From the IMG/VR virus record IMGVR_UViG_3300047470_000295, positions 17,962 to 81,961 of that record: 64,000 bases of DNA. One strand, 5' to 3'. Of this stretch, positions 7,204-63,763 are shown in pieces. How positions within the stretch are numbered: the first letter of the stretch is position 1; each line of letters starts with the position of its first letter. The DNA is from a virus. The position numbers and the translations under genes are program-made. The notes beneath the pieces are model-generated. The model was given only the letters and a program-made list of their open reading frames with translations, made no database searches and was not told the origin of the DNA.

Positions 7204-7207
7204 TTTA

Positions 7208-9105: not shown

Positions 9106-10398
9106 TCAATCCTCGTTTGGGAGACGTTTGGGAGATCGTTTACGCCTGGGGGCCGTGTGCTCGGGAAAGGGGCCCAACTCGCGGCGGTCCACGACGACCT
9201 TCAGCGAGTCCTCCCACAACCTCTGGAGGTACTCAGCGATCGCCATCTCCATCGCCAACGTCACGTGCGAGTACGTGCCTTCGACGCCCTGGAGCACATG
9301 CCCCATCCGCGCCTCGACAGCAACCCTAGGGTGATTCCCCTCGTCAAGCCAGACCTTCTGCGAGTGCCGAAGCCCGTGCGGCGTGAGGCCCTCGACGCCC
9401 AGGACCGGCGGGACACCGACCCGCGCCTTCGCCCCGCGCACAACCCCCCGCGGTGCACGGCCCGACACGATGGGCTGCCACGTCTCCGCGTACCAGTCGC
9501 CACCCCGCAGCAGGCGCCCACCCTTGGGGGCGGTGAACACCCACTCGCCATCCGGCCGCGAGTCGATCAGCTGTTGCAGGAGTTCCGCCAAGAAGGCGGG
9601 AAGGATGAGCCCGCGGCCCGAGTCGTACTTGTTGTCGATCTCCGTGAACACGCCACCCACGTACTGACTCTGCTGCACCGAGTGGAGGCGCGGGCCCATG
9701 CCGGCGTCCTTCAGTTCCAACTGGTCGCGGTGCACGCCGGCGAGCTCGCCGATGCGCAGGCCGGTGTACGCGGAGGCCAGGACGATGGCGTACTCGTTGA
9801 GACCGCGCATCTGGAGCGCGTTGCGCGCGATGTGGAGTACCTGCCGTGGGGTGGCGATGGTCTTCTCGTCCTTCGGCTTCGGCTTGAACTTGCCGCGCCG
9901 GCCGCTCTTGCGGGTCGCTACGGGATTGTCGCCGCGCAGCCGTTCCGCGACGGCGTCATCGAGCATGGTGCGGAAGACGCTCATGACGGCGTCGGCATAG
10001 TTCTTCGAGATCCGCTGCCGCAGACCCTTCTCCCAGGTGGTGATCGCAGTGGGGGATAGATCACCAACGGCCGTCTGGCCCCACTCGGGGAGGATCTGAT
10101 TCTTCAGCCGCAGCCGGTACTCCTTCTCGCTGAGCGGCCCGACATCGATGGACTCAAGCCATCGCTCGGACCACTGCCCAACCGTCGTGCGCCCGTCGCG
10201 CGGGTTGAAGAACTGCTGCCTGCGAACGTCGACTTCGAGGCCGTGGGCGTAGTCCTTCGCCGAGCGCAGCGTGTAGAACGGCTGACCGTTCTCATCCTTG
10301 GAGACCGATCCCCACTCGCCGTTGGGGAGCTTGTACCGACCGCGGTACCGCCACTTACGTGCGCGCTTGTCGTAGCCGCGCTTCTCTGCGTGGGCCAT
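9106..10398 (-). CDS. int: tyrosine integrase
   Basis: 430 aa. ASAYTGLRIGEL (catalytic Arg), HGLRHS, and GH...TYSHV (Tyr) motifs, plus an N-terminal arm-binding-type domain. Confidence 0.95.
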   Translation of the reverse strand: MAHAEKRGYDKRARKWRYRGRYKLPNGEWGSVSKDENGQPFYTLRSAKDYAHGLEVDVRRQQFFNPRDGRTTVGQWSERWLESIDVGPLSEKEYRLRLKNQILPEWGQTAVGDLSPTAITTWEKGLRQRISKNYADAVMSVFRTMLDDAVAERLRGDNPVATRKSGRRGKFKPKPKDEKTIATPRQVLHIARNALQMRGLNEYAIVLASAYTGLRIGELAGVHRDQLELKDAGMGPRLHSVQQSQYVGGVFTEIDNKYDSGRGLILPAFLAELLQQLIDSRPDGEWVFTAPKGGRLLRGGDWYAETWQPIVSGRAPRGVVRGAKARVGVPPVLGVEGLTPHGLRHSQKVWLDEGNHPRVAVEARMGHVLQGVEGTYSHVTLAMEMAIAEYLQRLWEDSLKVVVDRRELGPFPEHTAPRRKRSPKRLPNED

Positions 10399-10747: not shown

Positions 10748-11308
10748 TTACGAGCTGTGCGCGGCCGGCGGTTCGTCGCTCACGTCCACGTCGTCAGGCA
10801 GACGGTGCAGCTTGCGCTCGGTGCGCCGCCAGGCGAGCAGTGCTTCCTGAATCTCGGCGGGGGTCGCGTCGGGCCGGCCGTGAACCACGATGGTCATGCG
10901 CGCACCGCCCGTGCCGGGGAGTTGGATCACCTGTGAGTCGATGAGGGGGTCGTCGCTCTCCAGCTCGTCGACCACTCGCAGCGGCAGCTTCCGCCGGAGT
11001 ACTTCGTCGGTTCGACGGACGGTCGACGCCGAGGAGCTCTCGGTCACGAGGGTCGGTTCGCCGCCGGTGAGCACGGTCGGGCCGGATCCTGTCGCCCATC
11101 CGAGGTGCGGCTCGATCTTCGCGAGGGTCTGCGGCATCCGGCTACGCGGTTTGCCGCTCTCAAGGTTCTGGACGCTGCCCTCGCTGACGCCTGCAAGTTC
11201 CGCCAGTTGGGGTTGCGTGAGGCCGCGCGCTTCGCGGGCTGTGCGAATTGCGGTAGCGAGCTTCGCCCACTGCAGGTTGGTCCGGTCCTCCGCCATGCGG
11301 CTCATCAT
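10748..11308 (-). CDS. XRE/CI-like repressor candidate
   Basis: HTH is ARGLTQPQLAELAGVSEGSVQNLESG. The C-terminal domain is unknown. The start is one of several ATGs between 11296 and 11332. Confidence 0.75.
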   Translation of the reverse strand: MMSRMAEDRTNLQWAKLATAIRTAREARGLTQPQLAELAGVSEGSVQNLESGKPRSRMPQTLAKIEPHLGWATGSGPTVLTGGEPTLVTESSSASTVRRTDEVLRRKLPLRVVDELESDDPLIDSQVIQLPGTGGARMTIVVHGRPDATPAEIQEALLAWRRTERKLHRLPDDVDVSDEPPAAHSS

Positions 11309-11332
11309 GCCGCACGGATAGGCAACACGCAC

Positions 11333-11586: not shown

Positions 11587-11847
11587 ATGAAGGCCATCCG
11601 CGAGGCACGGGGGATCAGCCTTCGCCGGCTCGCGAAAGACATCGGCAGAGATCCGGGCTTCCTGTCCCGCGTCGAGGACGACAAGCAGGGAGCAGGACCC
11701 GGAACCCTCCACCTCTATGCCAGCTACCTGGACGTGCCTCTGGCCGCCATTACCCACAAGGAGATACCCCGTGACCAGGAACGACCTGGCTCCCCCCACG
11801 GAGACGACGCTGATCCTCCGCCTGACGGAGATCAAGGAAGCTGTTGA
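11587..11847 (+). CDS. Cro-like XRE HTH protein
   Basis: MKAIREARGISLRRLAKDIGRDPGFLSRVE. The 3' end overlaps the next gene, so the true stop context is uncertain. Confidence 0.55.
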   Translation: MKAIREARGISLRRLAKDIGRDPGFLSRVEDDKQGAGPGTLHLYASYLDVPLAAITHKEIPRDQERPGSPHGDDADPPPDGDQGSC

Positions 11848-12094
11848 GCGTCTCGCCGCGGCCCCCACTGCCGCCGAGCTGGAACTCACCGCGTTCACGC
11901 CGGCCAAGGCCGCCGAGCTCCTCGGCAAGACCGAGAACTGGGTCATCGAGGCCATCCAGAACGGCCGGATCCCCCACACCTACGTCGGCAAGTCGCCGCG
12001 CATGACCGCCGCCCACATCCGCTGGGTTCAGGCGAGCGGCGAGCGAGTGCCGAACCAGTACGCCAAGCCGCTCGCCGCCAGCGCCGCCGCCTGA
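11771..12094 (+). CDS. excisionase/MerR-type HTH protein
   Basis: GTG follows AAGGAG. FTPAKAAELLGKTENWVIEAIQNGRIPHTYVGKSPRM matches the excisionase-family HTH pattern. Confidence 0.6.
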   Translation: MTRNDLAPPTETTLILRLTEIKEAVERLAAAPTAAELELTAFTPAKAAELLGKTENWVIEAIQNGRIPHTYVGKSPRMTAAHIRWVQASGERVPNQYAKPLAASAAA

Positions 12095-32448: not shown

Positions 32449-33120
32449 CTAGGCCTTCTCGGTGGTGCGGTGCTGCGAGATGAAATAGTCGACCGTCGCC
32501 GGGTCTCTCCGCATTGCGGCCAGCAGCTGCTTCTTTCGGAACTGCTCCCGGCCAGTCTCCAGGATCTTTTCGTAGCCGTCGCGGGCTTGAACGATCCGCT
32601 CGACGGCCAGGAATTCGATGACGTCTTCCAGGCATGGGCGGAACCGTTTGCCGCCGACCGGGAAGTGAAGCGCCGCGAGGGAGCGGCCCGTGTCCGTCTT
32701 CGGGTCGTTCAGTGACTCGAAGAACCCTGACGACGCCTCGACTTGCAGGTGGGCGTCCGGGTAGCCGTCAGCCTTGTCCCGCTCGTAGTCGTAGTGGAAC
32801 AGGCCGTGCTTGGCGTCCTTCGACCCGAACACGCCGACGAACGACTTGTGGACCATGAGATGTTCGCGCTCGATGTCGAGGCGTAGCTGGAAGCTGACGT
32901 CCATCCATAGCTCAACCTTCGGCGCCCGCGGCTTCAACTGAAAGCGTTCCGCTGTCAGTAACCGTTTATCGAGCAGGTGTCCAAGCATGAAAAGGCGGTC
33001 GTCACCCACCTGGAGTGCGACCGCCTTTATTTGCACGTGACTGGCGATGGTGCCGTTCAGGAGAGCCTGGATCTCCTTGGTGAATCTGATCGTCTGATTG
33101 AGGAGCTTGTCAGAGATCAA
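32449..33120 (-). CDS. unknown protein (223 aa from TTG 33120, or 179 aa from ATG 32988)
   Basis: Long clean ORF, visibly AT-richer than its surroundings. No family recognised. Contains FHYDYERDKADGYPDAHLQVE. Confidence 0.6.
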   Translation of the reverse strand: MISDKLLNQTIRFTKEIQALLNGTIASHVQIKAVALQVGDDRLFMLGHLLDKRLLTAERFQLKPRAPKVELWMDVSFQLRLDIEREHLMVHKSFVGVFGSKDAKHGLFHYDYERDKADGYPDAHLQVEASSGFFESLNDPKTDTGRSLAALHFPVGGKRFRPCLEDVIEFLAVERIVQARDGYEKILETGREQFRKKQLLAAMRRDPATVDYFISQHRTTEKA

Positions 33121-33319
33121 GTGCGCCGCCGATGGACACCCACAGTGATTGCGCCTGGGCCGAGGTGAACTCCCGCCGGCGGGCCATGTCGCGTAGCTGC
33201 GCGTAGGTCAGGCCGAGCCGGTCGAGGGCCGCGTAAGCAGCCTCCCGGAACTCTTCCTGCGTGACTTCGGTGATGACGTCGTCGTCGTGGTCAGCGTGTC
33301 GCTGTTCCTGAATGGTCAT
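33110..33319 (-). CDS. small acidic protein (69 aa) overlapping the start of the next gene
   Basis: ATG at 33319. Its 3' end overlaps the downstream ORF by 11 nt. Confidence 0.5.
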   Translation of the reverse strand: MTIQEQRHADHDDDVITEVTQEEFREAAYAALDRLGLTYAQLRDMARRREFTSAQAQSLWVSIGGALDL

Positions 33320-33383
33320 CCGAATCGCCCCTACCCCCCAGTAGCTTCTCGATGACAGTAGTGTCCCCCAAGGGTCTGACACT

Positions 33384-33397
33384 GTGACCCGGGTCAC
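33384..33397. promoter_or_regulatory. 14-bp perfect palindrome
   Basis: GTGACCCGGGTCAC, about 65 nt upstream of the 69-aa ORF. Confidence 0.35.
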
Positions 33398-33556
33398 CAC
33401 CCGGTGTCCAGCCAAACGACACCACTGTCGAATTCTTCCCACTTGCGCGTGATCTGTACGCCCGCAGTTGCCGTCATGTACGGATCCTGACTAGCCAGCG
33501 TTCGAGCATGACGACGCCCCCGCCCCGGTGAACCAGGACGAGGGCGCAGCGCACCG

Positions 33557-33880
33557 TCAGAACTGACCCGTGCAGGCGAGGCAGACCCGCGACGACTCCC
33601 ACGCTGCTCGCTGCTGCTCCGCGTAGGCCGTCGCCTTGTAGACGAGTGCACCCCAGCCCAGACCGCCGGCCGCGATCAGCAGGCCGAGGAGGACGGCGCC
33701 GTTCGCGGCGGCCACGATGCCGACCACCAGCGCACCCAGCGCCCCGAGCGCGCCACCCTTCGCCGCGGCGGGCGGCGCGTACTTCGCCTTCAAATCCGAG
33801 TCCGACGGCAACGACCGCCAATAGTGCGGAAGATCAGCCACGTTCGGCGACCCGCACTTCGGCGACGGACACACGATCAT
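33557..33880 (-). CDS. split zinc-ribbon, glycine-zipper two-TM mini-protein (107 aa)
   Basis: CPSPKC at the N-terminus, CLAC at the C-terminus. Central GGALGALGALVVGIVAAANGAVLLGLLIAAGGLGWGALV. Confidence 0.55.
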   Translation of the reverse strand: MIVCPSPKCGSPNVADLPHYWRSLPSDSDLKAKYAPPAAAKGGALGALGALVVGIVAAANGAVLLGLLIAAGGLGWGALVYKATAYAEQQRAAWESSRVCLACTGQF

Positions 33881-34082
33881 GCTCAACCCCCAGTCGACAC
33901 AGCCCTGTTCGCCGACAGTCCGGCCGCAGCTTGGGCGCCACAAGGCCTACCGACCGGTGTGTGAGCGGGGCCACAACCCAAACGCCGCGAGCGCCCCACC
34001 TGCATCAGGCGAGACGCTCGCGTAGCGAAACGACTACAGAACAGCCAGGTCAGACGACTGGCCTTAAGGCGCGCCCCTTCGC

Positions 34083-34577
34083 CTAGTCGTTCTGGTGTCG
34101 CAGCGCCCGGCTGATCGTTGACTGCTCGACGTCGAGCAGCCGCGCCACGGCGGACTGGCTGCCGACGATGTCGACCATCTTCTGCAGCTCGCGCGCCCGC
34201 GTTCCGGCGTAAGCGAGGACTTCGGCCTGCGCCTTGTCCATCGCCGCCGTGCAGCGCTGGACGTCGACCATCGCGTTGTAGAACCGTCGGTGCTGGTCGG
34301 CCGGCACCTTCGCCCACACGGCCTCTTCGATCCGGATCCGCTCCATGCGCTTGCGCACCAGGCGCGTCATTTCCGGGTTGTCGTCGATGCGGGCGAGGGG
34401 GCCATCCACCTCGCCCGAGGCGATGAGTGCGGGGTCCCACTCGAAGCTGTCGGGCTTCTCCAGGATCTCGAAGTCTTCGAGCAGCAAGGCGCCGCCACTG
34501 CCCGGCGTGCTGGGCTCGACGACGATGTAGGTGGTGCCGCTCTCGCTGCGGTATCGCTCGCCGATCTCGCTGAACAT
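34083..34577 (-). CDS. protein with C-terminal HTH (164 aa)
   Basis: ATG at 34577 follows ACGGGGG. C-terminal GSQSAVARLLDVEQSTISRALR. N-terminal domain is unknown. Confidence 0.55.
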   Translation of the reverse strand: MFSEIGERYRSESGTTYIVVEPSTPGSGGALLLEDFEILEKPDSFEWDPALIASGEVDGPLARIDDNPEMTRLVRKRMERIRIEEAVWAKVPADQHRRFYNAMVDVQRCTAAMDKAQAEVLAYAGTRARELQKMVDIVGSQSAVARLLDVEQSTISRALRHQND

Positions 34578-34615
34578 GACGCCCCCGTTGGTCCGTGGTG
34601 CTCCGACGCCAGTAA

Positions 34616-34658
34616 CTATGCACCCCTGCATAGACCTTGTCAATGCAGGGGTGCATAG
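34616..34658. promoter_or_regulatory. perfect 16-bp inverted repeat (terminator and/or operator)
   Basis: CTATGCACCCCTGCAT-11 nt-ATGCAGGGGTGCATAG. Confidence 0.5.
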
Positions 34659-34669
34659 AGTCGAAAGAG

Positions 34670-34987
34670 CTACAGCGTCGCCAGGTCAGAGACCCGGTAC
34701 GGCGCGGGCAGTGGAGGCATCGGCACACCCAGCGCGTTACCCAGCAGGGCGCGGGCCACACAGTCCCGCTCCAGGGCCGGCTGGCCAGGTCGCATCGCCA
34801 GCAGCAGCCGGCCAGCCTCCTGGTGCGCGTACCCGGTGAAGCCGCGTTCCGTGATCGACGACTCCACCAGCTCCACGTCCAGGTCGGCCAGCAGCTGGGG
34901 GAGCGGGGTGTCGAGCAGGTCGGCTGTCGTGACGGACGCCGCACGCTTTGGGACGGGACGCTCGGGGGTGCAGGTTGCTACAGTCAT
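34670..34987 (-). CDS. hypothetical protein (105 aa)
   Basis: ATG at 34987 follows GTGAGGA. Confidence 0.5.
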   Translation of the reverse strand: MTVATCTPERPVPKRAASVTTADLLDTPLPQLLADLDVELVESSITERGFTGYAHQEAGRLLLAMRPGQPALERDCVARALLGNALGVPMPPLPAPYRVSDLATL

Positions 34988-35268
34988 GGACGTAGTCCTC
35001 ACTTTGACGAGGCGGATTACAGACTGGCGAGTGGCAACTCGCTGGTTGAACTGGCCCGGTGTTAGCGCACCGGGCCGTTCGCGTTTCTGGTCACAGCCTG
35101 CCGCATGACTCAACGGCGGCATCTTCATCGAGCAACGCATCCAGGGATGCGCTGGGGTGGGGTTGACCTGCGTAAAGGCCGAGGTCAATGCGCGCGCGCA
35201 AGTAAGTCGATCGAGTGAACACGTGAATTGACGCCTCTGTGTAGGCCCTACGAACGGCTGAAACTCGA

Positions 35269-35694
35269 TCAGTGCGGCAGCGCGTCGTCGAGGTACTCCT
35301 GCACCGGTCCGAAAAGCCCGTAGGGCACGTAGTCGGCGATCTCCGCGTGCGTGATCCAGGCGACCGCGTCGAGCTCCTCGTCGTCTGCGACTCGGGCCTC
35401 GCCGCCGACCAGGCGGACCGCGACGTAGTGCATCGGCACCTTCGACTTCGGGTGCACCCGGTCGCCGAGCACCTTCACCGACTCGACCTTCAGGCCGGTC
35501 TCCTCGTCGACCTCGCGGACCGCGGCCTGCTCCGGTGACTCGCCGGCCTCGATCGCGCCGCCCGGGAACACCCAGGAGATCTCACCCTCGGCGGCCCTGC
35601 GGCGCGCCATGAGCACCTTGCCCTGGTCGACGATGATCGCGACCGACACCGGCGGCTTCTCGATCTTCTGCTCGGCAGTCGTCTCGGTCGTCAT
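35269..35694 (-). CDS. Nudix hydrolase (141 aa)
   Basis: Perfect Nudix box GAIEAGESPEQAAVREVDEETGL. ATGA coupling to the upstream gene. Confidence 0.85.
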   Translation of the reverse strand: MTTETTAEQKIEKPPVSVAIIVDQGKVLMARRRAAEGEISWVFPGGAIEAGESPEQAAVREVDEETGLKVESVKVLGDRVHPKSKVPMHYVAVRLVGGEARVADDEELDAVAWITHAEIADYVPYGLFGPVQEYLDDALPH

Positions 35695-36389
35695 ACGGTG
35701 GCCTCCAAGGCTTCCAGGATCGGCGGATAGATGCGGTCGCGGGGGATGTAGCGGGACAGCTCCTCTATCGGAGCCCAAGCCACGTCGGCGTTCTCGGAAG
35801 CGTCCCCGTTCACCGCTTCGCCTCGCACGTAGTCGCAGATGAAGTAGTCGCAGTAAGCGCGCGTAACCGGATGAAGCCGTTCACCCAAGTGCTCGCGGAC
35901 CATGCAGTGCACGCCCGTCTCGTCCAGGGTTTCCCTGACAGCGACCTTCGGAGCGGACCCGCCCGGCTTCACGATCCCCGCCGGGAACTGCCACGTCATG
36001 TCGTCGCCGTCCTGCCTGCACACGAGGAGGACATCACCGTCGCGGCGCACGACCGCAATGGCCACCCGCAGCGCCTGCGCCTGCATCTGCTGAGCGTGGG
36101 CGCGCACGTAGTGGATGAACAGCCTGCGCACCGCATCACCTGCCTTTCCGTTGTAGGCCGCGTTGAGAATCCGGCGCGTTTCCAACTTCGGGACCATGTC
36201 GGGCGCCTGATGCCAGGCGGCGACCGTCCGGACCGACACTCCGAGGCGCGCAGCGAACTCTTCCTGCGTGTCCTCGAAGGCGTCCTGGAGCCAGCAAGCG
36301 TGCCGGCCGGTCCACTGGGTGACGTCCACTATCGGCTCCCTGGCCGCTTCCGTGGGGGTGGTTGCGGCGAACCTGCAGAGTGCCTGCAC
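35691..36389 (-). CDS. XRE-HTH / Nudix-fold fusion protein (232 aa, start uncertain)
   Basis: N-terminal QEEFAARLGVSVRTVAAWHQ HTH. C-terminal Nudix fold with a degenerate box GIVKPGGSAPKVAVRETLDETGV. Confidence 0.8.
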   Translation of the reverse strand: MQALCRFAATTPTEAAREPIVDVTQWTGRHACWLQDAFEDTQEEFAARLGVSVRTVAAWHQAPDMVPKLETRRILNAAYNGKAGDAVRRLFIHYVRAHAQQMQAQALRVAIAVVRRDGDVLLVCRQDGDDMTWQFPAGIVKPGGSAPKVAVRETLDETGVHCMVREHLGERLHPVTRAYCDYFICDYVRGEAVNGDASENADVAWAPIEELSRYIPRDRIYPPILEALEATV

Positions 36390-36476
36390 GCCCGCTGCAT
36401 GATCACTGCATGCTGCTGCAGAGGGACTTCATGGCCTGAGGTCGCGCGTGCGCGTTGACTCGACCACATGGATAAG

Positions 36477-36731
36477 TCACTCGCCTTTGCCGAACTGGAA
36501 AGCGCGCTGGTACGAGACGCCTCCCATGATTTCCCCGATCTCTTTCCACGTCTTCTTCTCGTCCTTCAGCCCCAGGGCGATCTCCTGGCGCTGCCGCCGA
36601 CGGAAGAGCTCCAGTTCCTCGTCGAGGTGCTTGGCCAGTTCGATGAAGGCGGCCCATCGCTCGGTGAGGTTCTCGACCGCGCGCAGGTGTTCGTCGAAGG
36701 GTGCGAAAGGAGCGTCGTGGGAGTCGGCCAT
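36477..36731 (-). CDS. small HTH-like regulator (84 aa)
   Basis: First gene of the leftward island. C-terminal KTWKEIGEIMGGVSYQRAFQF. Confidence 0.5.
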   Translation of the reverse strand: MADSHDAPFAPFDEHLRAVENLTERWAAFIELAKHLDEELELFRRRQRQEIALGLKDEKKTWKEIGEIMGGVSYQRAFQFGKGE

Positions 36732-36761
36732 GACGTGAGAGTACGGGCGATCCGACGCTCA

Positions 36762-36854
36762 CTCAAGATGCGTCTTGAGAAGTTCAGTTGGGAGCTTGAC
36801 TCGCCTCGACTGGCCCTCTACGGTCGTACCAAGTCCTCAAGGCGCCACCTTGAG
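36762..36854. promoter_or_regulatory. two copies of a CTCAAG/CTTGAG inverted repeat in a divergent spacer
   Basis: CTCAAGA-tgcg-TCTTGAG at 36762-36779 and CTCAAGG-cgcca-CCTTGAG at 36836-36854. Confidence 0.45.
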
Positions 36855-36988
36855 AACGGCATCGCCGTCCACTCTCACCGGACCTGGTCCGCGGACGGCA
36901 GCGCCCCACAAATGAAGACGGGCCGGACACCGCGACTCTCACCTCGCAGGCCGGCCCTCACCACGAGGAATCTCTGAAGGGTCCCCTC

Positions 36989-37435
36989 ATGGCTACGCAG
37001 ATCGTACAGAACCGTGCGGGCGCAGCGCGCCCCACCTCCCCGCTTCCCATGGCGGCGGCGCAGGCGATGCACCGCATCGAGTACGCCCTGGCCGCCCCGC
37101 AGCGCGAGCTGGCCGCCAAGGTCGGCGCCGCGCTCGGCTTCCGGGGCGGATGTCAGCCCCGCGAGGACCTCGGCGAGACGGCGACCCGCCACATCGTCTG
37201 GTCGCAGGTCGAGCTGAACGACGTCTTCGAGCGGGTCGGCGGCACCGTCACCGCCCGCCGGGTGGAGCGTCGCACCTCCGACAGCTCGTCCACCTGGACA
37301 GCCACCGAGCTCACCCTCACCGTGAACCTGCCGGACATCGGCGCCGTCCAGGTCGCCACCGACCTGGAAGAGGAGTCGGAGGTCTACCCCACGGACCTGC
37401 CCGTCGTCCGTGCCGCCCGCGCGGTGACGGCATGA
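36989..37435 (+). CDS. hypothetical protein (148 aa), first gene of the transfer block
   Basis: ATG ORF with ordinary composition. Confidence 0.5.
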   Translation: MATQIVQNRAGAARPTSPLPMAAAQAMHRIEYALAAPQRELAAKVGAALGFRGGCQPREDLGETATRHIVWSQVELNDVFERVGGTVTARRVERRTSDSSSTWTATELTLTVNLPDIGAVQVATDLEEESEVYPTDLPVVRAARAVTA

Positions 37436-39298: not shown

Positions 39299-40558
39299 GT
39301 GACTGCCATGTCCGTCGAGAAGAAGGTCAACGGCACTCCGATGGCCTCGCCCGAGCCGCGGTTCGACCCGCGCGCGCTGGCCGAGGCGGAGGCGATCCGT
39401 ACCCGAGCCGCCGCCGAAGCCGAAGCCGCCCGAATCAAAGCCGCCGGTGAAGCCGAGGCCGAGAAGATCAAGGCCGCTGAGGAGGCTCGCAAGCAGAAGA
39501 TCCTCAACGACAAGGCCGAGTCGCGGGCCCGCGAGGAAGAGGCGGCGCGGGCGGCCCGCATCGCGGAGTCGAACAGCAAGCGCCAAGAGGCCGAACGCGC
39601 CCAGGAGAAGCAGGACCGGGAGGCGCTACAGGCGCAGGAGGACGAGGCGAAGCTCGCCGAAGAGATCGCCGCCGCCGACGAGAAGTGGCGGGCCTACGCG
39701 ATCCGCTTCGCGATCGTCTGCGGCATCGTCTCCCTGCCCGTCCAGATGAGCTTCTTCTGGAACCCGAAGGCGCCCTGGATGGCCGCCGCCCCGATCATGC
39801 TCGAAGGCGCCGCGTGGGTCGTCCACCGCGGGGCCCGTGCGGCGGCTGTCAGTAAGCGGCCCGTCTGGCACTACCGGACGATCGTCTGGCTCCTCGCCCT
39901 GATCGCCGCCGGCGTGAACCTCTACCACGGCCTCCACTCGTTCGACCCGGGCACGGCCATCGCGACCGCGTTCGCATCGATCGCCGGCCCAGGCGTCTGG
40001 GACCTCCACGAGCACGGCCGGCTCCGCAAGCGCGACGGGGCGCTCACCCGCAAGGAGCGCCGGGCGGCCGAGCGCGCCGCCAAGGCCGAGGCCCAACGGC
40101 TGGCCGCCGAGCAGCAGAAGAAGGCGGCCGACGAGGGGGCCGCACGCAAGGCGGCCGAGGCCGCGGCGGCGAAGCTCGCCGCGGACCGCGAGGTGATGTT
40201 CCCGAAGGTGTGGCAGCACGCCGTGAAGCTCGCCGCCGACCTTGGCCAGACGACTGTCACCAACGCGATCTGGGCCCAGGCCAAGTTCGACGTCGAAGGC
40301 GCCAAGCCGGGCGAATCCGCCGACGTCATCCGCATGCGCAACGCCGCCGAAGCGAGGGTCGCCGCAGCCCGCGAGAAGCGCCCCGTAAACGGATCATCAC
40401 AGCAGGTCGCATCGCAAGTGCTCGGTCCCAAGCAGAAGCGCGTCTACAACCCGCCCGCACGCCCCGGAAAGCGCCGCAAGGGCGACGTGAAGTTCACGTC
40501 CGCTGCACGCCGCCAGGCGTCCATTGCCGCCAAGCAGACCGCCGGAAAGAAGGACTGA
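39299..40558 (+). CDS. DUF2637/Spd-like membrane protein with Ala/Glu/Lys coiled-coil arms
   Basis: Central multi-TM core (AIRFAIVCGIVSLPVQMSFFWNP...PIMLEGAAWVVH...) flanked by AEAEA-rich helices. Sits directly upstream of the TraB-like gene. Confidence 0.65.
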   Translation: MTAMSVEKKVNGTPMASPEPRFDPRALAEAEAIRTRAAAEAEAARIKAAGEAEAEKIKAAEEARKQKILNDKAESRAREEEAARAARIAESNSKRQEAERAQEKQDREALQAQEDEAKLAEEIAAADEKWRAYAIRFAIVCGIVSLPVQMSFFWNPKAPWMAAAPIMLEGAAWVVHRGARAAAVSKRPVWHYRTIVWLLALIAAGVNLYHGLHSFDPGTAIATAFASIAGPGVWDLHEHGRLRKRDGALTRKERRAAERAAKAEAQRLAAEQQKKAADEGAARKAAEAAAAKLAADREVMFPKVWQHAVKLAADLGQTTVTNAIWAQAKFDVEGAKPGESADVIRMRNAAEARVAAAREKRPVNGSSQQVASQVLGPKQKRVYNPPARPGKRRKGDVKFTSAARRQASIAAKQTAGKKD

Positions 40559-40560
40559 GG

Positions 40561-42666
40561 ATGGCCACCCCGCTGACCGACGAGCGTGCCCCGCTGACCC
40601 TCGTCAAGGACACCCCCGAGACGGTCGACCCGGCCGCGGCGTGGGTCGTGGAGAAGCGGCCCCGCCCCGCCTGGATGATGTCCGGGCAGCAGCTGCGGCA
40701 GTGGGCTGTCTACGCCCGCGACAACGCGCTCGACTTCGCCACCCACCACGCCACCCACTCGCCCTACTACCTCGGCTGGTCGGTGCGCGGCTACCGCCGG
40801 CTCTGCCTCCGCTGGTGGCAGGCCCGGCACGACGACTACCGGCAGCAGATCGCCACCGCCAAGCTCATGCTCCGCCAGGCCAAGGAGATGCCGCGAGGCA
40901 CCGCGCGTGCCGCCGAAGAGTCGAAGGCCCGCGCCCTGCTCGAAGTTCGGCGCACCGAGTTCAAGGCGCACAAGCGGCGCCACTGGATCCGCACCGGCAT
41001 CAGCGGACTGCTCGTCGTCGGTGGCGCGTCCGCCGTCGCAGCCCTCGGCAGCTGGTGGATGCAGCTCCTCCTCGTCCTCGCCGTCGTGTTCGCCGGCGCC
41101 TACCACGGCCGACCCGAAGAGCGGGCTGTCGCCGCTGCGCAGGCGCCGACCCGGACGTCGCACCTGGGGGAGGAGACCATGCGGCGCGTCCTCGTCGAGG
41201 CCGGCGTCGTCCCCGAGAAGCGGGCCGCCGAGATCCGCGGCGTCGGCCTGCCCCACACGGAGGGCCCTGGCATCGCCTTCGCCGTCGACCTGCCGTCCGG
41301 CATGCCGGCCACGATCGCGCTCGCCAAGAAGAAGGAGATCGCCTCAGCTCTCGCCGTCCACAGCGACTGGCTCGACCTCGGCGTGGGCCGCGGCGCAGGC
41401 AGCAGCGAATCCCGGCTGGAGATCTGGGTCTCCCGGGAAGACCCCTTCGCCAGCGCCCACGTCTCCCCGCTCATCGGACACAAGGGCAAGCTCGACCTGT
41501 GGAACGACGGCGCCCCGCTCGCCTTCGGGAAGCGCGGGAACACCGTCCTTGTCCGCGTGCGCGACACGATGATGCTCGTCGGCGGCGCCACCCGCCGCGG
41601 AAAAGGCGTCTTCCTCGCCAACCTCAACCTCGGCGCATGCAAGGACGTGCGGGTCAACCTGCGGCTCTTCGACGGCAAGGCCTCCGGTGAGCACAACGCC
41701 TTCTCTGGGCTGCTCTCCACGTTCGTCAAGAAGAACCCCGAGCGGCTCACCCTGTTCCTGCGGGCCGTCCTTGAAGACCTCGACCGGCGCAGCGACTTCC
41801 TCGACGAGCGCGGCAAGGCCAAGCTGACCGAAGACCTGATCGAGGAGATCGGCGGCATCGAGCTCATCGACATCGACGAGTTGGCCACCTACACGGCCAA
41901 GGGCACCAGCCCCTACGTCGACGAGATCGTCGAGAGCCTCGCCCAGATCGGTGCCGTCGGTGCCGGTCTCGGGGTCCTCCTTGTCGCAGCAACGCAGGTC
42001 CCGGAAGTCGACGTCGTCCGCGGCCGGCTCCGCCAGAACCTGATCTCCCGCGCCGCCATGAACACCGAGTCGCCCAACGCCTCCAACACGATCCTCGGCG
42101 ACGGCATGGCCGGTCAGGGCTACGACGCGTCGGTGATCCCGCTCGATCAGCCCGGTCGGTTCTGGTTCAAGTCGCCCGACCTCGGCACGGTGTCGCTTCG
42201 CTCGTTCTTCATCGACGACGACGACAAGGCGCCGATCATCGCCGATGCCTACGAACTCCGGAAGGCCGCGGGCCGGCTTCCCGGACAGTGGCACGACCCG
42301 ATCGAGGAGAAGCTCGCCGCCTGGACCGGCGTCTCCTCGGCCGCCGGCGGGGAGCGCGGCAACGGCCGGATCGTCCGCGTCACCCTGCTGGAGCGGCTGG
42401 AGATCCTTGCCAAGCAGACAGGCCGCGGCAACGTCACGAACGCCGAGGTGTTCGCCGCACTCGCCACCACCGATCCGGCCAAGTACGGACAGCAGGACGG
42501 CGAAACGGGCCACGGCTGGTCGATCCGCGTCGGCAAGATCCTGAAGGACGAACTCGACCGCCTCGGCGTCGACATCGAGGCAAAGAAGGTCGCCGGCCCG
42601 GACGGGCAACGGACGTCGGGCTACCTGCTCGCAGACGTCACTGCCGCCCGAAATGTCCGCAACTGA
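40561..42666 (+). CDS. FtsK/SpoIIIE-family DNA translocase, TraB-like
   Basis: 701 aa. Two N-terminal TM helices, Walker A-like GGATRRGKG, Walker B-like ELIDIDELA, and a C-terminal helical (wHTH-like) tail. Confidence 0.85.
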   Translation: MATPLTDERAPLTLVKDTPETVDPAAAWVVEKRPRPAWMMSGQQLRQWAVYARDNALDFATHHATHSPYYLGWSVRGYRRLCLRWWQARHDDYRQQIATAKLMLRQAKEMPRGTARAAEESKARALLEVRRTEFKAHKRRHWIRTGISGLLVVGGASAVAALGSWWMQLLLVLAVVFAGAYHGRPEERAVAAAQAPTRTSHLGEETMRRVLVEAGVVPEKRAAEIRGVGLPHTEGPGIAFAVDLPSGMPATIALAKKKEIASALAVHSDWLDLGVGRGAGSSESRLEIWVSREDPFASAHVSPLIGHKGKLDLWNDGAPLAFGKRGNTVLVRVRDTMMLVGGATRRGKGVFLANLNLGACKDVRVNLRLFDGKASGEHNAFSGLLSTFVKKNPERLTLFLRAVLEDLDRRSDFLDERGKAKLTEDLIEEIGGIELIDIDELATYTAKGTSPYVDEIVESLAQIGAVGAGLGVLLVAATQVPEVDVVRGRLRQNLISRAAMNTESPNASNTILGDGMAGQGYDASVIPLDQPGRFWFKSPDLGTVSLRSFFIDDDDKAPIIADAYELRKAAGRLPGQWHDPIEEKLAAWTGVSSAAGGERGNGRIVRVTLLERLEILAKQTGRGNVTNAEVFAALATTDPAKYGQQDGETGHGWSIRVGKILKDELDRLGVDIEAKKVAGPDGQRTSGYLLADVTAARNVRN

Positions 42667-51032: not shown

Positions 51033-51048
51033 GGAGCCCGCGCCATGG
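51033..51048 (+). promoter_or_regulatory. start-associated sequence, copy 1
   Basis: GGAGCCCGCGCCATGG spanning the start codon of 51045. Confidence 0.5.
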
Positions 51049-51749
51049 CCGACGACCTGCTCGTCATCATCCCAACCCGCGGCCGGCCACAGGCCGTGCC
51101 GGAGATCGTGCAGGCGTGGGACGACACCGGGGCGACCGCCGACCTGCTGTTCGCGGTCGACACCGACGACCCGGAGCTCGCCGCGTACAAGAAGCACGCC
51201 GCCGAGCTGAAGGGCGACGGGCGGGTCCGGTTCACGTTCGGCAAGCGGCGCCGCCTGTGCGGCACCCTCAACCAGCAGGCCGTGAAGGCCGCCAAGACGT
51301 ACCGGTACCTCGCCTTCCTCGGCGACGACCACCGGCCCCGGCCCGCAGCGATGCCGTGGGATGCACGGATCCGGGAGTGCCTCTCTGGCGGGCCCGGCAT
51401 CGTCTACGGCAACGACCTGCTCATGGGCGAGCAGATGCCGACCGCCGTCGCGATGACGTCGGACATCGTCGACACGCTCGGCTACATGGCCCCGCCCGCC
51501 CTGGTCCACCTCTGCCTGGATCTCTGCTGGCTCGAATGGGGGAAGGCCATGCAGCGCATCACCTACCTCCCCGACATGGTGATCGAACATCTTCACCCCG
51601 CGAATGGCAAGGCGGTGTCTGATGCGGGATACGAAGAGGCGAATAGCGCAGAGCGCGTCGAGTCGGATTCGGCCGCCTATTACGCCTATATGCAGGGCGA
51701 GTTCATGGTCGATGCCGATAAACTGAGGGCGCTGGTTGCGACCAGCTAA
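51045..51749 (+). CDS. GT-A type glycosyltransferase
   Basis: LLVIIPTRGRP start and FLGDDH (DxD-like) motif. 234 aa. Confidence 0.65.
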   Translation: MADDLLVIIPTRGRPQAVPEIVQAWDDTGATADLLFAVDTDDPELAAYKKHAAELKGDGRVRFTFGKRRRLCGTLNQQAVKAAKTYRYLAFLGDDHRPRPAAMPWDARIRECLSGGPGIVYGNDLLMGEQMPTAVAMTSDIVDTLGYMAPPALVHLCLDLCWLEWGKAMQRITYLPDMVIEHLHPANGKAVSDAGYEEANSAERVESDSAAYYAYMQGEFMVDADKLRALVATS

Positions 51750-51756
51750 CATGTCG

Positions 51757-51785
51757 TCTAGCTGCGGCTGATCCCCGCAGCTAGA
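51757..51785 (+). terminator. perfect 11-bp stem hairpin
   Basis: TCTAGCTGCGG-ctgatcc-CCGCAGCTAGA. Further nested stems run up to 51830. Confidence 0.5.
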
Positions 51786-51834
51786 GGCGGGCTCCCTGTG
51801 ACGGGGCCCGCCTCGACTCGTCACAGGAGCGCAG

Positions 51835-52290: not shown

Positions 52291-52331
52291 CCCCCACCCC
52301 ACACGCCTGCGGCCAGCTACCGCAGGAAGGG

Positions 52332-52358
52332 AGCCCCAGCGTTCCAGGCGCTGGGGCT
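52332..52358 (+). terminator. 10-bp stem hairpin
   Basis: AGCCCCAGCG-7 nt-CGCTGGGGCT, preceded by CCTGCGG...CCGCAGG. Confidence 0.5.
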
Positions 52359-52377
52359 TCCGCGTTCCCTGGAAAGG

Positions 52378-52623: not shown

Positions 52624-52632
52624 GGAGGCAGC

Positions 52633-60190: not shown

Positions 60191-60670
60191 ATGGCCGGCC
60201 GTGGACCTGCCCCGAAGGATCCGAACCGCCGAGCTGGGCACAGCAAGGATCCTCACGACCAGACGATCCTGCGCTTCGAGCAGGCCGAGCCGCCGGAGCT
60301 ACCGACCTTGTCGGTGATGAAGGACGGCGAGCTCGTTGAGTACGCCTGGCCAGCTCGCACGCTGGACTGGTGGGAGATGTGGAAGGCGTCCCCTCAGGCC
60401 GAGCACTTCAGCAGCACCGACTGGGACTTCCTGTTGGACACGGCCGTCGTGCACGCCCGGCTGTGGTCGGGGGAGATGTCCGCAGCCGGCGAACTCCGAT
60501 TGAGGGTTGCCAAGTTCGGTGCGACCCCGGAGGACCGCGCTCGGTTGCGAATGCAGTTCGCCCAGGCCGACGAGGCAGACAGCAAGCGCCCTGAGGGCGG
60601 CCGCTCGGCGCGAGAGAGGCGGGGCGTGCTGCGTGCACTGCCGCCGCCTGAAGAGTCGTCGGGGAGCTGA
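60191..60670 (+). CDS. terS: terminase small subunit
   Basis: ATG follows GGGAGG. N-terminal GRGPAPKDPNRRAGHSK is typical of actinophage small terminases. Directly upstream of TerL. Confidence 0.7.
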   Translation: MAGRGPAPKDPNRRAGHSKDPHDQTILRFEQAEPPELPTLSVMKDGELVEYAWPARTLDWWEMWKASPQAEHFSSTDWDFLLDTAVVHARLWSGEMSAAGELRLRVAKFGATPEDRARLRMQFAQADEADSKRPEGGRSARERRGVLRALPPPEESSGS

Positions 60671-60671
60671 C

Positions 60672-62303
60672 ATGCCGTGGAAGCCGCCGGAACCGGGAGC
60701 CGTCCCAACCTTGGGGTTCGAGGTCATCGACTGGATCTCCGAGATGTTGGCGGCCCCCGACCGCGGTGACTACGAGCCGTTCCTGCTGTACCCGGAGCAA
60801 GAGGACTTCGTCCTTCGCTACTACGAGATCAACCCGCGAACTGGCAAGCGACGCTTTCGGCGGGGCGTCATCAGTCGGCCGCGAGGGTGGGGCAAGAGCC
60901 CCTTCCTTGCAGCGCTGGCCATCGTTGAGGCTCTCGGCCCAGTGGTGCCTGATGGATGGGATGCCGAGGGGCAGCCGGTGGGGAAGCCTTGGTCTGAGGT
61001 GCGGACGCCATTGGTTCAGATCGCGGCGGTGTCTGAGACGCAGACGAAGAACACTTGGACTCCCCTTCTGGAGATGCTTCAAGGGCCAGCGATCGACGCC
61101 TATCCGGGGCTGGAGCCGCTCGACACGTTCGTGAACCTGCCGCGGGGGAGGATCGAGCCGATTACGTCTTCCGCTCGCACCGTCAAGGGCAACAAGCCCG
61201 TCTTCGCGGTGCTGGACCAGACAGAGGAGTGGGTTCGATCGAACCGCGGCAACCGGCTGGCGGAGACGATGAGGATCAACGCCGCGAAGGTCGGCGGCAC
61301 GACCATCGAGTCCCCGAATGCCTTCATCCCTGGCGAGGGTTCCGTCGCTGAGGAGTCGGCAGCGTTCTGGGCGAAGATCCGCGAGGGTCGGGCCCGCGAC
61401 GACGGCCTGTACTACGACCACCGCGAAGCGCCCCCCGAGACGGACATGACGGACCGGGACTCCCTGCTCTCAGGCCTGTCGTACACCTACGGAGATTCAG
61501 CGGACCGCAACGGCGGCCACGTCGACCTGGACACGCTCGTCGCCACGATCTGGGACCCCAGTACAGATCCCCAGACGGCCCGCGCCGACTTCCTCAACCA
61601 GATCACGCACGCGTCCGACTCATGGATCTCACAACCCGAGTGGGCTGGCGTAGCCGCCGCCGACAAGGTCGTCGGTCGCGGCGAGGAGATCGTCCTTGGT
61701 TTCGACGGCTCGCGACGACGAAACCGCGGAGTCACGGACGCCACCGCCTTGGTTGGCTGCCGGGTGTCCGACGGCCATCTCTTCCTACTCGGCTGCTGGG
61801 AGCAGCCTGACGGGCCCTTTGGCCAGGACTGGCAGGTCCCCACCGTCGAGGTGCTGGCAGCCGTCGAGGACGCGTTCCGCGAGTACAAGGTCGTCGGCAT
61901 GTATGCGGACCCGGCCAGGTGGGAGTCGCATGTGGCGAAGTGGGAGGCGGACCATGGGCGCCGACTGAAGCTCAAGTCGTCGACTCAGCATCCGATCGAG
62001 TGGTGGATGACCGGAGGCCGTTCTCATCAGATCGTTCGCGCGCTGGAGAAGTTCCGGTCGAGCGTCGTCGACGGTGAGCTTTCACACGACGGGTCGAGCG
62101 TGCTGACGAGGCACATCCTCAACTCTCGTCGGCGTGAATCGCGCAGCGGTATTCAGATCATGAAGGAGCACCCCGACAGTCCGAAGAAGATCGACGCCGC
62201 CATCGCTGCTGTCCTCGCGTGGCAAGCCCGAGTGGACGCCATGGCCAAGGGGCTCGGCAAGAAGAAGACAGGCAAGTCAGGACGGGTGGTGGTGCTGCGG
62301 TGA
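60672..62303 (+). CDS. terL: terminase large subunit
   Basis: 543 aa. Walker A-like RPRGWGKSP, Walker B-like VFAVLDQTEEW, and a C-terminal nuclease-type half. Confidence 0.9.
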   Translation: MPWKPPEPGAVPTLGFEVIDWISEMLAAPDRGDYEPFLLYPEQEDFVLRYYEINPRTGKRRFRRGVISRPRGWGKSPFLAALAIVEALGPVVPDGWDAEGQPVGKPWSEVRTPLVQIAAVSETQTKNTWTPLLEMLQGPAIDAYPGLEPLDTFVNLPRGRIEPITSSARTVKGNKPVFAVLDQTEEWVRSNRGNRLAETMRINAAKVGGTTIESPNAFIPGEGSVAEESAAFWAKIREGRARDDGLYYDHREAPPETDMTDRDSLLSGLSYTYGDSADRNGGHVDLDTLVATIWDPSTDPQTARADFLNQITHASDSWISQPEWAGVAAADKVVGRGEEIVLGFDGSRRRNRGVTDATALVGCRVSDGHLFLLGCWEQPDGPFGQDWQVPTVEVLAAVEDAFREYKVVGMYADPARWESHVAKWEADHGRRLKLKSSTQHPIEWWMTGGRSHQIVRALEKFRSSVVDGELSHDGSSVLTRHILNSRRRESRSGIQIMKEHPDSPKKIDAAIAAVLAWQARVDAMAKGLGKKKTGKSGRVVVLR

Positions 62304-63763
62304 CCGTCTCGATTCCTGAACTGCCGCTGGTGACGTTGTCGGATGACGAGCTCGGTCTGATTGGCCTGCTGCGGGCGGATCTTCTGCGGGACCGTTGGGA
62401 GCTGAAGCTGCGGGACGCGTATTTCAACGGCGAGCAGCTGGTACGCGACCTGGGTATCTCCATTCCTCCGCAGTTGCGGGGCCTGCACACGGTGATCGGT
62501 TGGCCGCGGGTCGGGGTCGAGTCGCTGGAGGAGCGCCTCGACTTGGAGGCGTTTCGGTGGGCGGACGGCGCTGATTCGTCGGAGCTGACGGAGATCGCCG
62601 AGGCGAATGACTTGTTCGACGAGTCGAGCCTCGCGCACCTGGATGCGCTCGTGTACGGCCGCGAGTATCTGGCGGTCGGGACGGGGGACTGCGGGGATGA
62701 CTGCCCGCCGTTGATCTCGGCGGAGTCGCCGCTGGACATGACGCTGATGTGGGATGCCCGCCTGCGGATGGGCACGGCCGCACTCCGCGAGTGCGCCGCT
62801 GACTCGTTCGTCGAGTCGGGTCCCGAGGAGCGGATGCTGGTCCTCTACCTGCCGGACCAGACGGTGATGGCCATACCGACGGCGTCGGGCGGTTGGGAGG
62901 TCGTCGACCGGGACATGCACGGCCTGGGCGTCGTGCCGGTCGTCAGGCTGGCGAACCGGCAGCGGACCGCAGACCGGGTCGGCAAGTCGGAGATCACTCC
63001 CGAGGTCATGTCGATCACCGATGCGGCCTGTCGCCGGCTGATGGGCATGGAGGTTGCCGCCGAGTTCTACGGGGCTCCGCAGCGGTACATCCTGGGTGCG
63101 TCTGAGTCGGCGTTCCAGGACGCCGATGGCAATGCCAAGTCCGCGTGGGAGACGTACATCGGGCGGGTCCTGGCGTTGGAGCGGGACGAGGACGGTGGCA
63201 TCCCGAGCGTGGGCCAGTTCGCCGCTCACGATCCGTCTGGCATGACGAAGTTCATCGACCTGTACGCCAGGATCATGGCGTCGCAGATGTCGGTGGCCCC
63301 GCACGTGCTGGGCTACAGCAGCGACAACCCGGCGTCCGCGGACGCCATTCGGTTCGCCGACAATCGGCAGGTCAAGAAGGCTGAGCGCCGTATCCGCCGG
63401 TTCGGGGCCGGTTGGCAGCAGGCGATGCGTCTGGCGCTGTGGGTTCGTGACGGGGAGCCGCCGGACAGCACGCGCCGCATCGAGACGGTGTGGCGGAACC
63501 CTGCGACGCCGACGGTGGCCGCGCAGGTCGATGCGACAGTCAAGCTTGTCCAGGCAGGTGTCCTGCCCGCAGACTCCGATGTCACGTTGGAGATGGCCGG
63601 GTTCACGGAGGGCCAGCGGCAGCGGATTGCCGTGGACCGCCGGCGCTCGTCGGCGGCTGCTACGGGTGGCGGTCTGCTGGATCGCCTGGCTGCGGTGAAC
63701 GAGCGGTCGACGGCCGCGTTGCCGTCGGCTGCGGAGGTGTCTGGTGGCGACGTCGGTCTCTGA
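62300..63763 (+). CDS. portal protein (SPP1 gp6-like)
   Basis: GTGA coupling to TerL. 487 aa with pattern and length typical of SPP1-type portals. Confidence 0.85.
   Translation: MTVSIPELPLVTLSDDELGLIGLLRADLLRDRWELKLRDAYFNGEQLVRDLGISIPPQLRGLHTVIGWPRVGVESLEERLDLEAFRWADGADSSELTEIAEANDLFDESSLAHLDALVYGREYLAVGTGDCGDDCPPLISAESPLDMTLMWDARLRMGTAALRECAADSFVESGPEERMLVLYLPDQTVMAIPTASGGWEVVDRDMHGLGVVPVVRLANRQRTADRVGKSEITPEVMSITDAACRRLMGMEVAAEFYGAPQRYILGASESAFQDADGNAKSAWETYIGRVLALERDEDGGIPSVGQFAAHDPSGMTKFIDLYARIMASQMSVAPHVLGYSSDNPASADAIRFADNRQVKKAERRIRRFGAGWQQAMRLALWVRDGEPPDSTRRIETVWRNPATPTVAAQVDATVKLVQAGVLPADSDVTLEMAGFTEGQRQRIAVDRRRSSAAATGGGLLDRLAAVNERSTAALPSAAEVSGGDVGL

Follow-up and report, generated by a model that had tools for sequence, protein, structure and literature searches.

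We analysed a 64 kb stretch of viral DNA (positions 17,962 to 81,961 of the IMG/VR record IMGVR_UViG_3300047470_000295, further called the window), which has a G+C content of ~68% and a codon-position GC typical of Streptomyces. On its minus strand we identified a gene encoding an HTH (helix-turn-helix) domain fused to a degenerate Nudix domain, followed by a gene encoding a canonical Nudix hydrolase. We observed this arrangement in 146 distinct related loci, 142 of which have a 4-nt overlap between the two genes, therefore it is not a matter of chance. Judged from its conservation, the degenerate domain is a maintained, pseudo-enzyme-like domain and not a decaying copy. The cassette formed by the two genes is a portable module and not a dedicated regulator of transfer (tra) genes, since in approximately 60% of the full-length genome loci (33/55) it faces an operon that lacks tra genes. 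We favour, with slightly less than even confidence, the explanation that the cassette is self-regulated and that it senses and clears a nucleoside diphosphate linked to another moiety (NDP-X) in conflicts between mobile elements and their hosts.

A degenerate and a canonical Nudix gene in tandem

The fusion gene occupies positions 35691..36329 of the minus strand and encodes 212 amino acids (aa) when read from the GTG codon at 36329. We delimited it with the use of the open reading frame (ORF), the starts of homologues, Pfam and AlphaFold2. The original prediction let the fusion extend to 36389. The longest reading of the ORF does reach back to a GTG codon at 36389 (232 aa), but the GTG at 36329 is probably the true start, since the homologues mostly have 211-213 aa with a first residue that matches V21 of the long ORF, and a GGGAG Shine-Dalgarno sequence lies 6 nt upstream of it. 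The gene of the canonical hydrolase (35269..35694, minus strand, 141 aa) is located directly downstream. The stop codon TGA of the fusion (35691-35693) overlaps the ATG codon of the downstream gene (35692-35694), which gives ATGA at 35691-35694.

Both proteins were matched by the Pfam NUDIX profile (cut-off 21.1 bits), the downstream one with E 7e-25 (88 bits) and the upstream ORF 35691-36389 with E 1.4e-15 (57.9 bits, residues 108-216). The Nudix box of the downstream protein, GAIEAGESPEQAAVREVDEETGL (35491..35559, minus strand, G46-L68), agrees at every position with Gx5Ex7REUxEExGU, so the box predicted there as perfect is indeed so. The box of the fusion, GIVKPGGSAPKVAVRETLDETGV (35910..35978, minus strand, read from the sequence), fails the complete pattern, as position 7 is Gly and position 19 is Asp (DE for EE). 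Two conserved Glu are missing from it; the Arg is retained, together with the first Glu of RE and the second of EE. This box belongs to a degenerate (pseudo-)Nudix domain at 35694..36074 of the minus strand, which we delimited by the Pfam match, Foldseek and paralogy to the downstream Nudix. None of the NCBIfam equivalogs reached its cut-off for the fusion or for the downstream Nudix. The downstream enzyme resembles an ordinary small MutT-type Nudix, without a named family.

Further, we assessed how the box varies among relatives. We sampled 80 loci from contigs of one genome per species (194 places matched in all) and 75 loci from IMG/VR. The genome loci were derived from Streptomyces, Kitasatospora, Glycomyces and Hamadaea. 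The overlaps and canonical boxes were counted in the 146 distinct loci and the positions of the fusion box in 143. Position 7 of the fusion box was G in 69 loci, A in 55, V in 8, R in 6, T in 2, and S, H and E in one locus each. Position 19 was D in 71 loci, A in 39, G in 29, N in 3 and S in one, and never Glu, while position 15 was Arg in 82/143 loci. In 20 close homologues of the fusion the box was invariant save for D, N or A at position 19. The downstream protein carried the exact canonical box Gx5Ex7REx2EExG in 133/146 loci. The median identity to the window was 62.8% for the degenerate Nudix, 60.9% for the downstream Nudix and 48.6% for the HTH, and the degenerate Nudix was better conserved than the HTH in 151/152 loci. 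Since the degeneracy of the box is kept and the domain is the best-conserved part, the pseudo-Nudix is a constrained family trait. The degenerate box described in the original prediction was thus read correctly, and its degeneracy is shared by the family. We found more than 1,100 relatives of the fusion in 90% clusters, every one of them named just 'NUDIX domain-containing protein', and ~1,900 matches at E<=0.001 among 50%-identity representatives.

The Nudix gene directly followed the fusion in 81/81 loci that could be judged. The 4-nt overlap of the stop and start codons takes the form of ATGA or GTGA, and in one further locus the genes are fused in frame. The coupling of a regulator-like protein with a constrained degenerate Nudix to an intact hydrolase was supported by the 142/146 overlapping loci. 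An in-frame read-through version is present in Streptomyces sp. B1866 (L067 10001-11110), where one ORF reads HTH-pseudoNudix-Nudix. The Nudix domain of the fusion is a specific paralogue of the downstream Nudix (33% identity, E 7e-19). Residues outside the box (R.HP, Y, GEA, D..E, W) are common to both families, which fits a shared ligand.

Two Nudix domains in one polypeptide were present in 25 of the 150 best 50%-identity representatives, and their order was always degenerate ('GxVKP...ET.xETG') then canonical. The N-terminal partners of these tandem Nudix domains included HTH_3/HTH_31, TIR_2, DprA-like, HD-CE and Rossmann domains, and a single degenerate Nudix was found behind TCAD9. We consider the single-chain fusions the strongest evidence in this analysis that both products act as one unit. 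The TIR, DprA-like and HD-CE partners place the tandem Nudix unit among nucleotide-centred conflict systems, and the suggestion of nucleotide signalling made in the original prediction is consistent with these fusions of the relatives. The distant relatives that carry effector or signalling fusions are P0165, P0173, P0139, P0198, P0161 and P0177.

The N-terminal part of the fusion (36078..36326, minus strand, residues ~2-84 of 212 aa) is a predicted five-helix Xre-like HTH, delimited by AlphaFold2 and sub-threshold Pfam matches. HTH_3 scored 16.9-18.9 bits on the window fusion, under the Pfam cut-off of 23. PF20432 (Xre-like antitoxin HTH) gave sub-threshold matches in 9/17 diverse family members, all of them <25.8 bits (best E 2.4e-4). 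The Pfam gathering threshold of the Xre/Cro-C1 HTH family (PF01381, PF20432) was thus not reached. Comparison of the family profile with the PDB gave a weak match to the HTH of the MbcA antitoxin (E 0.04). We observed no GntR match to the fusion, and the HTH matches were of the Xre type only. The AlphaFold2 model was obtained from a 48-row alignment of fusion homologues and the paralogous Nudix family. It contains helices at 8-18, 22-29, 33-41, 49-62 and 65-84 with a predicted local distance difference test score (pLDDT) of 91-96, and after them a Nudix fold at 88-210 with the box helix at 126-138 (mean pLDDT 92.6 for the fusion). We conclude that the HTH of the fusion is real but divergent. 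The XRE-type HTH of the original prediction thus stands with regard to the predicted helices and the type of the matches, but these matches remain under the Pfam thresholds.

In an earlier AlphaFold2 run, which used 20 close homologues, the HTH alone was predicted well; the Nudix part had a pLDDT of 28-75 and weak Foldseek matches. The Nudix part of the 48-row model was matched by Foldseek to Ap4A hydrolase, MutT2, NudC and DR1025 at E ~1e-9, with a TM-score of at most 0.76 on the target, and the top 50 matches to the fusion model were all hydrolases. The profile search of the PDB (E<=0.01) returned Ap4A hydrolase, MutT, NUDT6 and RppH. The Nudix fold that had been predicted for the upstream, ATGA-coupled ORF was thus found both by Pfam and in the model. 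A search of BFVD yielded no viral protein that combines these two domains in the same way, and the long alignments had a root mean square deviation of >11 Å. A literature search returned no description of a prokaryotic pair of a degenerate plus a canonical (tandem or pseudo) Nudix, and none of an Xre-Nudix or HTH-Nudix regulator of this architecture, although absence there is no proof of novelty. The plasmid contexts of the Nudix homologues were uninformative.

Genomic contexts and candidate cis elements

We compared the surroundings of the cassette in loci of at least 18 kb (55 genome loci and 52 IMG/VR loci). In the window the cassette faces a divergent plus-strand block composed of small genes, a gene of a 419-aa membrane-like protein and a gene of a 703-aa TraB/FtsK-SpoIIIE-like translocase (40555..42666, plus strand). 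The latter was matched by Pfam FtsK_SpoIIIE (24.7 bits) and phrog_1358 (E 2e-32), and its identity to TraB-like proteins encoded by Streptomyces plasmids, pZL1 among them, amounts to 33-46%. Plasmid pZL1 has the same tra layout, preceded by a divergent GntR gene, therefore the likeness of the window block to a kor/tra arrangement is real. The cassette occupies the spot where Streptomyces plasmids place the GntR Kor repressor. This context, with TraB or the 419-aa protein, was found in 17 genome loci and in 35 IMG/VR loci (in the latter, either gene within 10 kb of the cassette).

In the second context, found in 33 genome loci and 2 IMG/VR loci, the cassette faces a conserved divergent operon of six genes with variable flanks, and tra genes are absent. 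The operon (e.g. L027 4964-9597) encodes NDK, a TPR protein, a CYTH-like protein, a 254-aa protein, a 464-aa protein and a methyltransferase. The 254-aa protein is HD-like by eye only and had no Pfam match. Judged by its gene content, the NDK-CYTH operon is again nucleotide-centred, and the island is present in many Streptomyces genomes. Neither context was recognized in 5 genome loci and 15 IMG/VR loci. The original prediction tied the cassette to control of the neighbouring transfer block. As a dedicated role this does not agree with the 33/55 genome loci that face the NDK-CYTH operon.

Between the fusion start and the preceding 84-aa gene we observed five direct (A)TGCAG repeats (36373..36420, minus strand), a candidate operator or promoter element located 44-91 nt upstream of the fusion start. 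The repeats are spaced by 10, 11, 11 and 11 nt, that is by a helical turn. We obtained three overlapping triple matches vs 0 expected, and the array is the sole one of this kind in the 64 kb. The repeats are conserved in window-type loci, where the spacers are variable. In other clades the spacing is 11, 22 or 33 nt, with 10-11 nt and its multiples dominating, and RTGCAG/GTGCAS repeats are found at the same place in the NDK-CYTH context. As no DNA-binding protein other than the HTH fusion is shared by the two contexts, the simplest reading suggested by these data is autoregulation by the fusion via the candidate TGCAG array. The repeats of 36732-36988, named in the original prediction as a site to be examined for binding of the fusion, do not fit as the cis element of the cassette, as it is the TGCAG array that travels with it. 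Scans of 34900-37100 for sigma-70 promoters and intrinsic terminators found nothing, and the hairpin after the Nudix stop folds no better than shuffled sequences (z -0.07).

The divergent intergenic region contains two palindromes CTCAAG-N6/7-CTTGAG (CTCAGG-type) at 36762-36779 and 36836-36854, two matches vs 0.02 expected. In the related loci L001 and L002 the second palindrome is CTCAAATCGAGATTTGAG, a change that preserves the palindrome. The exact CTCAAG...CTTGAG pattern was absent from the first related loci, and the variant palindrome was visible by alignment alone. Further, there are three copies of GTGAGAGT, at 36735-36742 (plus strand), 36871-36878 (minus strand) and 36935-36942 (minus strand), two of them direct; the third is inverted and lies where the 84-aa gene starts. 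Both direct copies are replaced by GTAGGAGT in L002, and this matched change suggests a co-evolving candidate binding site. The 84-aa protein could be the binder of the 36732-36988 sites.

Proposed role of the cassette and competing explanations

We compared the cassette with systems that share some of its features. NrtR is a one-component regulator with a degenerate Nudix-like domain and a DNA-binding domain, in which ADP-ribose controls DNA binding (PMC2330246), and Nudix-HTH factors related to NrtR have been predicted in conflict systems (PMC9503650). The cassette resembles NrtR in the fusion of a degenerate Nudix to a DNA-binding domain, and control of this binding by NDP-X may be common to both. 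In contrast to NrtR, where an N-terminal Nudix precedes a C-terminal winged HTH, the HTH of the cassette is N-terminal and Xre-like. The fusion is always accompanied by a coupled, presumably active Nudix paralogue, and it resides in a prophage or in an NDK-CYTH island, not among NAD biosynthesis genes. We rejected membership in NrtR on the grounds of domain order, HTH type and the lack of NrtR among the PDB sequence matches and the top 50 fold matches. The fusion is therefore not a relative of the NrtR-type regulators cited in the original prediction.

Clusters of the mdp-nud-xre type are known from the AICEs (integrative and conjugative elements of actinomycetes) pMEA100, pSE211 and AICESco5349 (PMC2440964, PMC3218068). 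By description only, they share with the cassette an Xre-type regulator, a Nudix and an HD-like phosphohydrolase gene (the last in the second context, by eye) on actinomycete mobile DNA. The clusters described in the literature have xre and nud as two genes, whereas the cassette fuses the HTH to a degenerate Nudix and an intact Nudix follows. The hidden Markov model of the PADLOC candidate PDC-S07 matched both cassette proteins (E 1.4e-20 and 3.7e-11). PDC-S07 is a single-gene Nudix candidate, without an HTH and without a tandem partner. It was detected, yet was not among the systems picked for testing, in one paper on the candidate.

In the model that we favour, the HTH-pseudoNudix protein would bind the TGCAG array and repress its own operon. 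Its pseudo-Nudix would pair with the catalytic Nudix as a dead/alive dimer, and/or bind the same NDP-X without hydrolysing it efficiently. The ligand would most likely be derived from NAD+ or ADP-ribose, and its binding would change the binding of DNA. The co-produced active Nudix would then hydrolyse the ligand and reset the switch. We propose such a ligand on three grounds, namely the fusions to TIR and DprA-like domains, the resemblance of the HTH to Xre/MbcA and the precedent of NrtR. The role would lie in the conflict of the mobile element with its host, here possibly in superinfection or transfer immunity similar to that of Pif of the Streptomyces element pSAM2, or in erasing an immune nucleotide of the host. 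All functional steps of the model were inferred from sequence.

Several observations weigh against this model. The identity of the ligand was guessed from the associated domains. The TGCAG array could instead serve as a promoter element or as a site for another factor; Xre-type HTH proteins usually bind palindromes, not direct repeats, and in the main NDK-CYTH clade the repeat is found in degenerate form only. As AlphaFold2 modelled a single chain (predicted template modelling score 0.64), its result does not address the proposed dimer. Residual catalysis by the fusion is possible, since the Arg and two of the Glu (the first of RE and the second of EE) are kept in its box. That the minus-strand block is expressed in the lysogen is an assumption based solely on its orientation.

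We also considered a more far-reaching version, which we regard as doubtful. According to it, the tandem would be a general sense-and-erase unit for an NAD+- or ADP-ribose-derived signal, attached by bacteria and mobile elements to HTH, TIR, DprA/SLOG-like and HD-CE outputs. In plasmid-phage-like Streptomyces prophages of 56-90 kb it would render the expression of lysogen genes responsive to this nucleotide, which it would also destroy. If this were true, the cassette would amount to a prophage regulator gated by a metabolite and equipped with its own reset enzyme, and its output could be superinfection or transfer immunity, or a decision on lysis or transfer.

It is unlikely, in our estimate, that the cassette is an equivalent of Kor and Pif dedicated to transfer, in which the fusion would repress the TraB operon via 36732-36988 and the Nudix would block redundant conjugal transfer. 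Such a role would agree with the position divergent to the TraB-like block, which mirrors the GntR-tra arrangement of Streptomyces plasmids (pZL1), with the conservation of the intergenic palindromes, including a compensatory change, and with the presence of TraB or the 419-aa protein within 10 kb in 35/52 IMG/VR loci. In pSAM2, immunity given by Pif needs the Nudix motif (PMC2440964). The likeness to KorSA/Pif is at the level of layout, as in both cases a Streptomyces mobile element with a TraB-type translocase carries a regulator gene and, directly after it, a Nudix gene whose motif is intact. However, KorSA is a GntR protein without a Nudix, while the cassette regulator is Xre-like and bears a pseudo-Nudix, and pSAM2 is an AICE, unlike the window element, which has a terminase and a portal. 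Of the Kor/Pif-like pair postulated in the original prediction, the place opposite a TraB block was retained, but the element is a prophage and the regulator is not of the GntR type. The prophage also has its own CI-like repressor. Moreover, 33/55 genome loci face the NDK-CYTH operon without tra genes, the travelling repeat array lies upstream of the fusion and neither in the divergent region nor elsewhere in the window, and the 84-aa gene, located between the fusion and the divergent promoter region, encodes a possible local regulator. We find it more unlikely still that the cassette is a toxin-antitoxin-like or abortive infection system, with the Nudix as a latent toxin depleting NAD(H), dNTPs or another essential NDP-X and the HTH-pseudoNudix as an autoregulating antitoxin that forms an inactive heterodimer with it. 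Type II modules typically have such a gene order, small genes and a 4-nt overlap, an operator-like array lies upstream, the cassette is carried by prophages and islands, and PDC-S07 matches both proteins. The HTH is closest to Xre-like antitoxin HTH domains, given the PF20432 matches and the weak match to MbcA. MbcA is the antitoxin of the NAD+-degrading toxin MbcT. In Xre-RES systems (MbcA/MbcT) an upstream gene of an Xre-like HTH protein also overlaps, stop with start, a downstream enzyme gene, and the similarity of the cassette HTH to MbcA and PF20432, weak as it is, would fit the NAD+-linked theme. On the other hand, the partner in the cassette is a Nudix and not a RES toxin, and the C-terminal domain of the fusion is a Nudix paralogue and not the toxin-binding domain of MbcA. 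Covalent fusions of both Nudix domains exist in the cassette family, and a releasable toxin is difficult to square with single-chain HTH-pseudoNudix-Nudix and TIR-pseudoNudix-Nudix proteins. Conservation is highest in the presumed antitoxin domain, the downstream enzyme resembles small MutT-type Nudix proteins of the ordinary kind, and we know of no Nudix toxin.

Two further explanations concern the prophage itself. The fusion might be a second repressor, which keeps the middle/late operon (36989 onwards) silent until a stress or immune nucleotide builds up, and induction or transfer would then depend on a metabolite and not on RecA. We regard such a nucleotide-gated prophage switch as improbable. 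The minus-strand block does resemble an immunity region in its location between early and later operons of the plus strand, an HTH followed by a C-terminal sensor domain is the usual layout of a repressor, and NrtR provides a precedent. However, a conventional CI-like/HTH_17 pair adjoins the integrase, the cassette is found outside prophages as well, and no TGCAG array precedes the plus-strand operon. The explanation that we consider least probable is an ordinary pair of house-cleaning Nudix enzymes, a phage accessory e.g. for sanitation of the nucleotide pool, in which the HTH would be either a leftover or a plain autoregulator and there would be neither sensing nor a complex. Both proteins resemble small MutT, Ap4A-hydrolase or RppH-type enzymes, the sources annotate both merely as NUDIX hydrolases, and Nudix genes are common in large phages. 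Against this, the degeneracy of the box is under strong constraint, translational coupling is nearly universal, both domains recur as covalent fusions behind signalling or effector domains, and a conserved cis array accompanies the cassette.

Nudix proteins of actinomycete mobile elements have been tied to conjugal immunity since the description of Pif, and the mechanism is unsolved (PMC2440964, PMC3218068). The cassette offers a tractable entry to this problem, as it combines a conserved dead/alive pair with a DNA-binding domain, a candidate operator, natural single-chain versions and TIR, DprA-like and HD-CE relatives. If the pair senses and clears a nucleotide, as we propose, it would constitute a second, architecturally distinct class of Nudix transcription factors beside NrtR. 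The model, if true, might also help to identify the signal by which Streptomyces prophages and plasmids recognize occupied cells or host immunity.

The host element and its other genes

The element that carries the cassette is of interest by itself, as it joins phage packaging genes with a plasmid-type TraB translocase. Judged from its genes, it is a Streptomyces prophage that also bears this translocase. We identified a terminase large subunit (60507..62303, plus strand, phrog_9, E 6e-75) and a portal protein (62219..63763, plus strand, phrog_104, E 4e-136; 37-42% identical to actinophage portals). The early region is of the phage type, with a PD-(D/E)XK nuclease, methylases, a replication initiator, a DnaC-like protein and DnaB. 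Both portal and cassette were present in at least 8 IMG/VR contigs of 56-90 kb. An AICE was considered and ruled out by the terminase and portal at 60.5-63.8 kb, which share IMG/VR contigs with the cassette. Among the isolated phages of INPHARED we found no homologue of the fusion and none of the TraB-like protein. A mixture of phage and plasmid genes has a precedent in the 'plasmid-phages' of Streptomyces, for instance pZL12, and the element (9106-64000) looks like an integrated 'plasmid-phage' of this kind.

The element has a conventional lysogeny module. It is composed of a tyrosine integrase (9106..10398, minus strand, Pfam Phage_integrase, E 1.5e-7), a CI-like HTH_31 repressor (10748..11332, minus strand, HTH_31 and HTH_3, E 8e-9) and an Xis/Cro-like HTH_17 gene (11717..12094, plus strand), which faces the CI-like gene. 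As this CI-like/HTH_17 pair lies beside the integrase, the HTH-Nudix is not the sole repressor candidate of the element. The minus-strand block that contains the cassette (32449-36731) has plus-strand operons on both sides, a placement typical of genes that are expressed in lysogens.

The first gene of this block is that of the 84-aa protein (36477..36731, minus strand), with a codon-position GC typical of coding sequence. Its homologues (35-75% identity) were found in 17/83 loci, and it is kept solely in the window-type (prophage) context. The protein had no Pfam, PHROG, NCBIfam or PADLOC match and no meaningful PDB match. Downstream of the Nudix gene the minus strand carries two further ORFs, at 34083-34643 and 34670-35188. 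One of them encodes a 186-aa protein with a C-terminal YdaS/repressor-like HTH, and of the other the C-terminal ~80-105 aa are kept after the cassette in ~35 related loci.

To the left of the integrase (2279-8469) we observed a serine invertase/recombinase (2279-3082), an HNH-like endonuclease (3079-4017), a GntR protein located outside the element (7430-7717) and a small HTH_3 protein (8233-8469). These genes may belong to another mobile element or to the flank of the attachment site. In the related element of S. flavusporus HC307, a gene with a match to PF26761 (Acb5) and a Phage_zn_bind_8 gene are present (L001 13948-14907), in a region that corresponds to the early genes of the window. Within the prophage, genes for modification with sugar or methyl groups are located at 51045-54343, namely a glycosyltransferase/methyltransferase-like gene (51045-51749, phrog_14945), a methyltransferase-like gene (52633-53229) and an NAD-dependent epimerase (53477-54343), the products of which may modify DNA or the cell surface.

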